From: Candidatus Poribacteria bacterium
GTDB lineage: Bacteria; Poribacteria; WGA-4E; WGA-3G
Direction of reading: 5' to 3'
Assembly (NCBI GenBank): GCA_965198235.1
Contig: OZ240248.1
Coordinates: 1-64,000, forward strand
Length of the DNA stretch: 64,000 nt
Part shown: positions 31,695-61,820 of the stretch, piece after piece
Layout of the letters: each line of letters begins with the position of its first letter
Position numbering within the stretch: the first letter of the stretch is position 1
Notes under the pieces: generated by a model
The model's input: only the letters and a program-made list of their open reading frames with translations
Database searches by the model: none
What the model was told of the DNA's origin: nothing
Program-made: the position numbers and the translations under genes

Positions 31695-32645
31695 ATGAAG
31701 CACATAAAAATTCCCGGAGTTAGCAAAGACATCTCGCATCTGATTCTGGGTACCATGATGTTTTCACCTGTAAAATTCGACTATAGCACCGAAATGCTCG
31801 ACGCTTTTTTTGAAGCCGGTGGAAATGCCCTCGACACAGCACACGGTTATGGCGGTGGTGATAGTGAAATGCTCATCGGTCTCTGGATGCGGCAACACGG
31901 TAACCGAGAGGGAGTTTTTCTCATTGACAAGGGTGGACATCCACAAGGCAGAGTACCGCGTCCACGTCTCTCCCCCGAAGAACTCAAAAGCGATCTTGAT
32001 GAGAGTCTCATCCGGCTCCGCACCGATTATATAGACCTTTACATGCTCCATCGCGACGACCCCGTGATTCCGGTTAAAACGATTATTGATTACCTGAACG
32101 AGGAGATCGGTGCAGGACGCATCCGAGCTGCTGCCGCCTCTAATTGGCAACCTCAGCGCATTATTGATGCCAACACCTATGCCGCCGAAAACGGGTTAGT
32201 GGGCTTTGTTTCTTGTAGTAACAACATCAGTCTCGCAGTACCGATGGAACCGATGTGGGGGGGTTGCGTTTGCGTCGACGATGCCGCTCGCGAATGGCAT
32301 AAAGAGAGCCAGTTCCCGTTGATGCCCTGGTCCTCGCAAGCACGAGGTTTCTTCAGCGGCGCGTTTACACCGGAGAACCGCGAAAACGGAGATATGATGC
32401 GCGTCTATTACAATAATGGCAATTTTGAAAGACTCGCACGCGCAAAGAAATTAGGCGAAAAATACGGCTATTCCGCAATTCAGGTCTCCCTCGCATACTG
32501 CTTGAATATTCCATTCCCCGTTTTTCCAATTGTTGGACCTGCAACCTTAACGGAGATGGATTCCTCTGTCGGTGCCATGGGACTTGAACTTTCTGATGCT
32601 GAAATGCGGTGGCTCAACTTAGAAACGGATGGAGACCCGCTATGA
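31695..32645 (+). CDS. Aldo/keto reductase
   Basis: DTAHGYG, YIDLYMLHRDD, PWSSQARG. Confidence 0.93.
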   Translation: MKHIKIPGVSKDISHLILGTMMFSPVKFDYSTEMLDAFFEAGGNALDTAHGYGGGDSEMLIGLWMRQHGNREGVFLIDKGGHPQGRVPRPRLSPEELKSDLDESLIRLRTDYIDLYMLHRDDPVIPVKTIIDYLNEEIGAGRIRAAAASNWQPQRIIDANTYAAENGLVGFVSCSNNISLAVPMEPMWGGCVCVDDAAREWHKESQFPLMPWSSQARGFFSGAFTPENRENGDMMRVYYNNGNFERLARAKKLGEKYGYSAIQVSLAYCLNIPFPVFPIVGPATLTEMDSSVGAMGLELSDAEMRWLNLETDGDPL

Positions 32646-33721
32646 TCGCAAGAATTCTTTTTCTATTGTTCTGCTTTCAATTCATCTTTCTACCCCTCGG
32701 TTTTTCCCAAGAAAGCTGAGGCGCGTGAAGCAATCCCGCAATTCCACGAGGCGGGATTGGTGAAGTCAGTTTGACTTCAGAAGAGATGAAGCGATTTCAG
32801 AGTACTGTCAGTATGATGCGGTGGTTTGATGCACAGGGTGGACACCTCGAAACAAAAGGGATTTCCGCAGGTGGAAAGGTGATAGATATCCCGGTACATC
32901 GACACCATGTTACCCTGAATATTTTTCGCGTTGATATCGGCTTGAAGTATCAATTCGGTTCTCAATGGATGCTTGAAGCGAATGTGCCCTACGAGACCAA
33001 AGTCCAAGAAGCAACTATTGAAGAAATTGAGACAGTCTCACAAGTGGAACGCGAAGCAATTGTACGCAATCGCGACAATCATCATCGAAATGAGACCTAC
33101 ACGGGACTCACTGACCCCGATGTTTTTCTGGGATACCATACGGTAAGCCTTTTTAAGGAAAACGATTTCTTAATGGGGCGCATCGGAACCACGATTCCAT
33201 TTGGCAAAACCGAAGAAGATCCGTGGAAGTTGGGGGATGCTGGATTTGAACATCTCCATATCCAGTTCGGAACCGGGACCTTTAATCCGGTCGCAGACCT
33301 TCATTACAGCCTCCCTCTCTATAAAGGGTTGGGGGTAAATGCCAGTGTCCGCGGGAAGTTTCCGTTCTATGAAAACAGCAAAACCTATCGCGGTTCCAGG
33401 GAACTTACATATACGGCGGGGCTGAGTTATCGTTTCAGTGACTGGCTTTCGTTACAGGCAGGCTACCTCGGCTTTTATCAAGCTTATGCGTATTGGGCAG
33501 GTGAGCAGGACATCAATACCGGACTCCGTTTCAGCATGGCATCCGTGGGCGCGTCAATTGCAACGCCTTATAACGTTCCGTTGTCTCTGATGCTGATGTT
33601 GCCTTTGAGCCAAGAAACGCTTTATGATGATACCAGCTCTTTACTGGGTGGTGCGTATGAAGAGAGCGACGCTTTTGAATTCGGACCATTGGTGTCGTTA
33701 ACAGTTTTATATGCCTTCTAA
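32642..33721 (+). CDS. Putative outer-membrane beta-barrel selenoprotein with N-terminal UxxU motif (359 aa if both UGA are recoded)
   Basis: ATG overlaps the AKR stop (ATGA), GGAG RBS, signal-peptide-like MIARILFLLFCFQFIFLPLGFS, in-frame TGA at 32717 and 32726, frame continuous with the 32771 ORF, C-terminal Phe. Confidence 0.75.
32731..32759 (+). promoter_or_regulatory. Candidate bacterial SECIS hairpin
   Basis: CAATCCCGC/GCGGGATTG perfect 9-bp stem starting 11 nt after the first UGA. Confidence 0.6.
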
Positions 33722-33802
33722 ATTTCGGTTACCCACTGGGAAGCACCGCACACGGTGGGATCAGTTTTCAACTGCTCGGAATCTTGATTAGGTGTTTAAG
33801 TG

Positions 33803-61610: not shown

Positions 61611-61820
61611 ATGGACAAAACAAAATTAAAAATCAGCGGAATGTCCTGTCAACATTGCGTCAAAACCGTAACGGATGCACTCATAGAACTTCCGGGCGTT
61701 CGGCGTGCGAAAGTAAACTTGCGCAAAGCCGAGGCTGTCGTTCACTTCGATGCCTCACGCGTCACCCCTGCAAATCTCACAGAGGCGATAACCGCAGTGG
61801 GTTTTAAGGTTTTTGAATAA
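61611..61820 (+). CDS. copZ: Copper chaperone / HMA domain protein
   Basis: GMSCQHC; start MDKTKL. Confidence 0.88.
   Translation: MDKTKLKISGMSCQHCVKTVTDALIELPGVRRAKVNLRKAEAVVHFDASRVTPANLTEAITAVGFKVFE

Follow-up and report, generated by a model that had tools for sequence, protein, structure and literature searches.

Selenocysteine (Sec, U) residues paired with the spacing UxxU are found in SelL, a eukaryotic protein of thioredoxin fold whose Sec insertion sequence (SECIS) lies in the 3' untranslated region. We describe here a bacterial gene with the same spacing, located at 32642 to 33721 on the forward strand of a stretch of 64,000 nucleotides from Candidatus Poribacteria (GenBank assembly GCA_965198235.1, contig OZ240248.1, positions 1 to 64,000; the window in what follows), which is predicted to encode an exported beta-barrel with two Sec residues at its mature N-terminus. 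The likeness to SelL ends at the spacing, as Pfam places the window protein in no thioredoxin family and its fold is a barrel. The original prediction, made from the letters of this DNA alone, had regarded UxxU as best known from SelL; this was too narrow, and the accessible part of a review table lists three bacterial UxxU families, namely peroxiredoxin-like (Prx-like) proteins, the HMA-like metal-binding protein NF041115 and FmdB (PMC13188914).

Exported beta-barrels predicted to contain Sec have also been described. The same part of that table includes the outer-membrane protein GSU2204 of the MtrB/PioB family (NF041027) (PMC13188914), and a TonB-dependent receptor selenoprotein is known from Desulfosarcina (PMC12013277). 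As far as these partial sources go, both differ from the window protein in having one Sec each, in being much larger barrels and in belonging to other families. The closest described channels are those of COG4313/PF13557, represented by Pput2725 of Pseudomonas putida (4rl8), in which, according to the available part of the structural report, the N-terminal 14 residues precede strand 1 and lie in the lumen on the periplasmic side (PMC4493636). The window protein shares with these channels a length of about 300 aa, a 12-stranded barrel (Foldseek E 4e-10), a weak Pfam match and an N-terminal segment before strand 1. It differs from them in scoring below the Pfam cut-off, in its longer N-terminal segment (about 29 residues from Q23 to strand 1), in the motif UxxU/CxxC-S-N-P with seven invariant histidines, and in a family context of metal resistance instead of hydrocarbon degradation; the accessible part of the review table names no selenoprotein from COG4313 (PMC13188914).

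FapF (5o65/5o67), a 12-stranded amyloid-secretion barrel, is the best Foldseek match (E 3e-12, TM-score 0.5-0.6), but the likeness is one of fold only, since identity is 12-13%, FapF has no CxxC and there are no fap genes near the barrel gene. The C/U-x-A-C/U motif and the extracytoplasmic handling of soft metals are shared with HMA proteins (NF041115, 'UxxU_metal_bind'), with MerP and with the MerT/CopZ fusion selenoprotein (NF045683); these have a soluble ferredoxin-like fold, unlike the membrane barrel, and no sequence relation to it. The available part of a paper on the mer operon mentions the outer membrane only in a generic figure legend (PMC8261052). PF13557, COG4313 and Poribacteria are absent from the accessible texts of PMC13188914 and PMC12013277, whose supplementary tables could hold the family as 'hypothetical protein', and the titles and abstracts listed on Poribacteria and Sec, or on selenoproteins of sponge symbionts, contain no report of the barrel protein. 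We regard the barrel as a new selenoprotein family that is unusual in its compartment, in its fold and in carrying two Sec residues at the start of the mature protein, and perhaps also in how its SECIS is arranged.

The UGA pair and its exchange with cysteine

Two TGA codons lie in frame near the start of the gene, and their reading as Sec is strongly supported. The gene and the features around its start are the following.

32642..33721, + strand: full selenoprotein gene, 359 codons plus TAA (33719-33721), read from the sequence, with full-length two-TGA matches in relatives
32717..32719, + strand: UGA1 (Sec26), in-frame TGA at codon 26, with Cys (TGT/TGC) in paralogues and in two orthologues
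32726..32728, + strand: UGA2 (Sec29), in-frame TGA at codon 29, with TGA in 108 of 108 unique Poribacteria and Acidobacteriota sequences and Cys in 19 unique Bacteroidota sequences
32642..32707, + strand: predicted signal peptide, residues 1-22, recognised by eye from the positive charge at R4, a hydrophobic core of 17 residues and, after it, a site of cleavage type, G-F-S/A
32631..32634, + strand: ribosome-binding site GGAG, 7 nt upstream of the ATG at 32642, read from the sequence
31695..32645, + strand: aldo/keto reductase gene (Pfam PF00248, E 3.6e-48)
32786..32788, + strand: ATG of M49, the false start in the public annotation (302-aa database forms)

Both TGAs are conserved among relatives. 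A six-frame search of 60 relatives' genomes gave a full-length match with exactly two in-frame TGAs in 34 of the 36 other genomes of the genus (71-90% identity), the remaining two (G004 and G012) having a paralogue only and no ortholog. Three further families of the order (f2-f4; 36-50% identity) contributed 18 copies, of which 16 also keep both TGAs, and the readings of the relatives' sequences put them at the same two codons. The number of unique sequences over all fetched loci is 74 for UxxU, 34 for CxxU, 19 for CxxC and zero for UxxC. One of the 74 UxxU sequences, reading UPAU, comes from a metagenome-assembled genome (MAG) of Acidobacteriota (L116), and the idea that the family is confined to Poribacteria was dropped for this reason.

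At both sites TGA is exchanged only with TGT or TGC. Within the genus, a clade of paralogues with about 59% identity and 32 unique sequences has QES-C-P-A-U-SNP, the codon of its first site being TGT or TGC, and two orthologues also have Cys at position 1 (C-G-A-U and C-S-A-U). In Bacteroidota, 19 unique loci carry CPAC within the motif C-P-A-C-S-N-P. A profile search of 1.84 billion representative proteins returned 502 matches at E <= 0.001, and every one of the 12 intact homologues extending to the N-terminus carries C-x-x-C-x-N-P (CPAC, CAAC, CAGC, CSGC). N31-P32 and both C/U sites are invariant in the Sec-form and Cys-form alignments alike, and the indels between the TGAs and M49 preserve the frame in 68 of 68 sequences. 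These results answer two checks named in the original prediction: the homologues have Cys and no other residue at positions 26 and 29, both in the 12 full-length proteins and at the 19 Bacteroidota loci, and the orthologues retain TGA-N6-TGA. Two database proteins, P0164 and P0165, show W at the homologous TGA sites, presumably an artefact of gene calling under a code in which TGA means Trp.

In a maximum-likelihood tree, rooted at the midpoint only, all Sec forms group together (100/100) within a wider set of CPAC forms; the orthologues of the genus have the CPAU paralogues as their sister group (100/99), and the CGAU and CSAU copies fall inside UGAU groups. Because CPAU, CGAU and CSAU are placed separately under this root, position 1 appears to have reverted to Cys at least three times, and position 2 never.

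The read-through product has 359 aa, MIARILFLLFCFQFIFLPLGFS|QES-U-G-A-U-SNPAIPRGG...LTVLYAF. Its ATG (32642-32644) shares the letters ATGA with the TGA stop of the aldo/keto reductase gene (32643-32645). Under translation table 11 the frame yields only an open reading frame (ORF) of 316 aa from TTG 32771, which has no signal peptide. The best database matches, named 'hypothetical protein' of Candidatus Poribacteria, are 302 aa long, start from M49, cover 84% of the query and equally lack a signal peptide. The gene layout had been correctly anticipated, from the ATG, the GGAG and the ATGA overlap to the two TGAs and the single frame ending at 33721, and so had the missing signal peptide of the 316-aa ORF, which the 302-aa form shares. 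It is most likely that the public annotation truncates the gene and that this is a genuine selenoprotein. Cleavage was placed by eye after G-F-S, and the mature protein then begins at Q23, which is invariant in the alignment of homologues; the same n/h/c pattern and an A/V/S-Q junction are present in 68 of 68 homologues. The mature N-terminus is most likely Q-E-S-Sec-Gly-Ala-Sec-Ser-Asn-Pro, following a Sec-type signal peptide.

The machinery for Sec synthesis and insertion is encoded in the same genome, whose assembly has 5.17 Mb, 96.3% completeness and 5.3% contamination. The 5.1-Mb contig of the window carries selA (517.7 bits), a SelB winged-helix domain (70 bits) in a 671-aa frame, a tRNA-Sec (78 bits) about 170 nt from the SelB match, and selD (G000:C1:3115227-3116150), which itself has one in-frame TGA; all four components whose presence had been left to be checked are on this one contig. 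One in-frame TGA each is also found in 5 of 15 AhpC/TSA matches, of the peroxiredoxin family (L085, L086, L087, L089, L090). TGA is still used as a true stop, at the end of the upstream reductase gene and of 7 of 68 homologues of the barrel gene, and therefore no change of the genetic code is needed, as the original prediction had argued from neighbouring genes.

The genome as a whole appears rich in selenoproteins, with selD and the five peroxiredoxin-family genes having a TGA followed by a hairpin 12-14 nt downstream. It also encodes HMA proteins reading GMT-U-GA-C, with Sec in the first metal-binding position. This motif is seen in two adjacent small HMA proteins, secreted or lipoprotein-like, and in a 532-aa repeat protein with a C-terminal HMA domain (G000:C1:2526692-2527401, L181, and G000:C1:1343194-1343364, L183).

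Hairpins 3' of the two UGAs

The fold of 32705-32800 contains two adjacent hairpins with a free energy of -30.9 kcal/mol (z = -2.98; 0 of 200 shuffles as good). The strong hairpin that had been noticed after the TGAs is borne out by this fold and by its conservation in the Sec forms. The first hairpin (HP1) can pair in two registers, and the second (HP2) follows it.

32732..32758, + strand: HP1 register 1, arm 32732-32739 AAUCCCGC pairing with 32751-32758 GCGGGAUU, 11-nt loop, in the minimum free energy (MFE) fold
32740..32758, + strand: HP1 register 2, arm 32740-32745 AAUUCC pairing with 32753-32758 GGGAUU, 7-nt loop ACGAGGC
32761..32779, + strand: HP2, UGAAGUCA-GUU-UGACUUCA, GU-containing apical loop, in the MFE fold

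Register 1 begins about 12-14 nt after UGA1 and register 2 exactly 11 nt after UGA2, the 3' arm being common to both; the 5' arms of the two registers are 8-9 nt apart and the UGAs 9 nt apart. HP2 lies 32 nt after UGA2, and its GU loop resembles other SECIS loops of the genome. The hairpins of six further selenoprotein genes in the genome start 12-14 nt downstream of the UGA and have, for example, the loops GGU, GGA, CGGGU and CGUGAU. A scan of hairpin 5' ends gave, for the UxxU genes, peaks at 13-14 nt and 19-20 nt after codon 1, plus HP2; the CxxU paralogues have a single shifted peak 8-10 nt after their sole UGA, and the scan of the Cys forms gave nothing comparable to the hairpins of the Sec forms. 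The Acidobacteriota UPAU gene has a hairpin at an HP2-like distance after its TGAs. An Rfam scan of 32600-32900 (E <= 10) returned four chance-level matches, none near the gathering score, and no SECIS family.

Two tests were applied to these elements. Covariation was computed on 76 ortholog-type sequences (74 distinct) against 500 shuffles, counts that overstate independence, as the sequences are related. In register 2, 93.2% of cells are paired with 28 double-change cells, and covariation is 0.228 versus 0.132 in shuffles (0 of 500 as high); the signal comes mostly from one synonymous third-position pair (AU 20, GC 17, GU 11, CG 4, UG 4, UA 1, unpaired 16). HP2 has 93.0% of cells paired, 18 double-change cells and covariation of 0.191 versus 0.155 (0 of 500), and register 1 has 84.6% paired, 3 double-change cells and 0.104 versus 0.108 (405 of 500). 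Stability was compared with 300 synonymous recodings of the same peptide for eight representatives, and register 1 is far more stable than the recodings in six of the eight (p <= 0.04), the two misses having a shifted register. HP1 as a mere by-product of the peptide sequence was dropped as an explanation, given that synonymous recodings fold far worse in register 1.

In one sub-clade (L021-L027, L150, L155, L157, L158), HP1 and HP2 are separated by 6 additional nt, or two residues. There register 2 is perfect, AAUCCCGC-GUG-GCGGGAUU, and register 1 is weakened.

A SECIS-type hairpin after UGA1 is well supported. For UGA2 the candidates are the same hairpin, its second register, or HP2. In a two-register model, which is attractive but unproven, the 3' arm 32751-32758 would first pair with the 5' arm 12-13 nt after UGA1, and once the ribosome had advanced by three codons the same 3' arm would pair with the 5' arm 11 nt after UGA2; the hairpin, with HP2 adjacent, would in this way be kept at the mRNA entrance for both insertions.

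Barrel fold and genomic context

Downstream of the Sec pair the protein folds as a barrel.

32795..33718, + strand: beta-barrel domain, residues 52-359, about 12 strands, from the AlphaFold2 model, Foldseek, invariant His columns and the C-terminal Phe

AlphaFold2, run on a 31-sequence alignment, gave a model with a mean predicted local distance difference test (pLDDT) of 75.8 and a predicted TM-score (pTM) of 0.73. Its order is a signal-peptide helix, disordered residues 21-50 and about 12 long strands, with a helix (134-147) in a loop. In Foldseek against the PDB, FadL/TodX came next after FapF and Pput2725, and the beta-barrel seen earlier in the letters, ending LTVLYAF, is upheld by both the model and the 12-stranded matches. 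By sequence, a PDB search with the family profile had no match at E <= 1, a scan of the read-through protein against NCBIfam, which includes the models that the review table names, had no family at E <= 1, and Pfam at E <= 1e-4 assigned no family to any of 12 scanned barrel ORFs of Bacteroidota and Acidobacteriota. A precomputed PF13557 match is attached to some relatives in the database, and the neighbours of a Cys homologue in the Atlas of language-model embeddings are PF13557 clusters (51-75% of members) together with a Poribacteria cluster. We take the barrel to be distantly related to the COG4313/PF13557 channels, and it would lie in the outer membrane.

His68, His86, His88, His147, His148, His204 and His206 are invariant in the 31 aligned homologues, in agreement with the His motifs pointed out in the original prediction. 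H68, H88, H147-H148-R149-x-E151 and H204-x-H206 are invariant in both the Sec and the Cys alignments, and H86 in the Sec-form alignment. By strand order and secondary structure, from which alone their placement is derived, the invariant histidines would be placed close to the ends of strands 1-2 and of the loops following strands 3 and 5, in the extracellular half.

The neighbours of the window gene are the aldo/keto reductase upstream and an ATP-binding cassette (ABC) system with a family-5 solute-binding protein (SBP_bac_5) downstream. At other Poribacteria ortholog loci the reductase is upstream in four of five and the family-5 ABC system downstream in three of five; no functional link between the reductase and the barrel gene is apparent. 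An HMA domain match of 58 bits, in a 100-aa frame, lies elsewhere in the window at 61626-61808 (+ strand), about 28 kb from the barrel gene.

The Cys forms have another context. We compared 12 loci, 11 of them Cys-form loci from Bacteroidota MAGs and the twelfth the Acidobacteriota L116 locus with its UPAU gene. In 11 of the 12, the barrel gene comes directly after, and often overlaps, a gene for a secreted HMA-thioredoxin fusion with signal peptide, GMTCQSC and WCAPC, and the L116 gene too follows an HMA-thioredoxin gene. MerT or MerTP is found in 9 of 12 loci, the L097 copy scoring above the MerTP equivalog cut-off (285 versus 180 bits). MerA exceeds its equivalog cut-off (454 bits) in L097 and L102 (514 and 501 bits), and the reductase of L098 is below it. 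ArsR-type regulators are present in 6 of 12 loci, CsoR-like regulators in 4, HMA P-type ATPases in 3 and multicopper oxidases in 2. Of the features of a mer operon component, encoding together with merA and merT/merP is seen in part for the Cys homologues and not for the window gene. Moreover, the homologue P0133 (442 aa) has a fused C-terminal stretch with an HCGMC motif, HMA-like by eye.

The UPAU gene and its HMA-thioredoxin neighbour stand between two copies of a DDE transposase gene (L116, 4635-13276), which hints at mobility. In Poribacteria, a paralogue is flanked by a Cys-rich small protein and a His-rich YtkA-like protein, and one paralogue locus adds a YHS-domain protein with TolC-like genes. 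At the CPAU paralogue locus L119 (6398-11688) the Cys-rich protein has 145 aa (CPLLC, CC, CC) and stands with the YtkA-like protein, a protein resembling FMN_bind and one of 497 aa that has the haem motif CNVCH and, at its C-terminus, a barrel-like part whose last residue is F.

Rival readings and biological meaning

The reading that we prefer, and consider rather probable, is that of an exported outer-membrane barrel whose N-terminal Sec pair and seven invariant histidines form a site for soft metals of the Hg(II)/Cu(I) type. Both UGAs would be read as Sec by the organism's own SelA, SelB, SelD and tRNA-Sec, steered by the conserved hairpins directly 3' of them. The two selenols and the seven histidines would cluster into a binding or relay site carried on the N-terminal segment; in COG4313 channels this segment is found inside the barrel, at its periplasmic side. 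A soft-metal (Hg/Cu) role for the N-terminal pair, possibly with the histidines, is suggested because the Cys forms adjoin HMA-thioredoxin, MerTP, MerA, CsoR-like regulators and copper ATPases; that the window protein itself binds such a metal would be an extension from these relatives. The use of Sec at the metal sites of HMA proteins in this genome points the same way. The original idea of a metal-uptake or redox-gated channel has gained support from the mer/cop context of the Cys forms, and for the window gene, which has no such neighbours, we can still only infer it.

Several observations weigh against this reading. The incorporation of selenium in the barrel protein is deduced from the gene and its relatives. 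The segment with the Sec pair (residues 21-50) is modelled at a pLDDT of only 41-50, and the PF13557 match of 21.0 bits (E 4e-4) is under the 22-bit cut-off. Neither mer nor cop genes adjoin the gene in the window, and the genome, at its 96.3% completeness, has no MerT match and no MerA above cut-off. As regards the hairpins, covariation in register 1 is not above that of shuffles, the relatedness of the sequences overstates the significance of the other shuffle counts, and the excess stability over recodings is weak in most representatives for register 2 (p 0-0.33) and HP2 (p 0.05-0.31). In favour of the reading, the stretch with the gene is present, both TGAs unchanged, in contigs of four sponge metatranscriptome runs, all of one study, including a 2475-nt contig that spans 32300-33800 with two differences, neither at a TGA, and a second one that bridges the end of the reductase gene and both TGAs with zero differences; these RNA-library contigs may include DNA and show presence only, without transcript ends or expression level. 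A variant among them, 32749 A>T in the hairpin loop, is the letter common in relatives.

The main rival of the soft-metal reading is a purely redox role, in which the barrel with two Sec residues is real and the pair is a redox centre, for instance a diselenide/selenol switch that gates the channel or reduces an oxidant in the periplasm or outside the cell; the reductant of the Cys forms would be the thioredoxin half of their HMA-thioredoxin neighbour. A CxxC/UxxU pair has the spacing of the classic redox motif, the available part of one paper describes most selenoproteins of prokaryotes as having redox functions (PMC9312934), the partner of the Cys forms carries the WCAPC thioredoxin motif and the neighbours of the window gene are not metal genes. 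The same partner, however, also bears an HMA domain in clusters that are mer/cop islands, P0133 ends in its HMA-like HCGMC stretch, the pair is accompanied by seven invariant histidines, and C-x-A-C resembles the HMA loop GMT-C/U-x-x-C of this genome. We consider a redox centre by itself unlikely, though a serious contender, and the two roles are compatible, a metal ligand and a redox function not being exclusive.

The other rivals concern the decoding of the UGAs. It is improbable, to a greater degree than the redox centre, that only UGA2 is efficiently read as Sec, with UGA1 leaky or regulatory, for example through Se-dependent attenuation that ends translation after the signal peptide. Position 1 has gone to Cys in at least three lineages and position 2 in none, and covariation favours the register placed for UGA2 over that placed for UGA1; yet UGA1 is kept in 74 unique sequences across the order and in a second phylum, is followed at 12-14 nt by a very stable hairpin as in the other selenoprotein genes of the genome, and where lost becomes Cys and no other residue. 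That the TGAs are true stops, separating an upstream ORF of 25 codons from a barrel started at M49 (ATG 32786) or TTG 32771, is how gene callers have treated the locus, and 302-aa forms dominate the database. On that view the outer-membrane barrel would lack a signal peptide; the supposedly 'intergenic' S-N-P-x-I-P shows in-frame conservation and directly adjoins CxxC in the intact homologues with Cys, all 68 sequences keep the frame across indels, and TGA alternates with TGT/TGC only, so that we regard true stops as very unlikely. Least credible of all is a reassignment of TGA to Trp or Gly, or an assembly error. The W residues of P0164 and P0165 would fit a reassignment, but TGA serves as the stop of the reductase gene and of 7 of 68 homologues, the alternative residue is always Cys, and the TGAs are met again in 108 unique sequences, assembled independently, as well as in the RNA-library contigs.

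Beyond the preferred reading of a di-Sec barrel with a soft-metal site, a bolder proposal can be made, which we offer as speculative. The family may be an undescribed outer-membrane component of soft-metal handling, in which an N-terminal C/U-x-A-C/U 'hook' of the 12-stranded barrel would pass metal to periplasmic HMA-thioredoxin or MerT-type proteins; the hook would have turned into a di-selenolate site in Poribacteria and in one Acidobacteriota MAG, with the two-register SECIS decoding both Sec codons.

The family adds a selenoprotein to a fold and a cell compartment with very few known, and it allows the annotation of hundreds of database entries, now begun at a false Met, to be corrected. 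The distance allowed from a UGA to its SECIS is considered tight, and the gene offers a natural system for the insertion of two Sec residues three codons apart. The Cys relatives suggest a missing outer-membrane step, and a secreted HMA-thioredoxin partner, in the Hg/Cu resistance clusters of Bacteroidota. In the sponge symbionts, the barrel, alongside the Sec-bearing HMA proteins of the same genome, suggests a use of selenium in extracytoplasmic metal chemistry.

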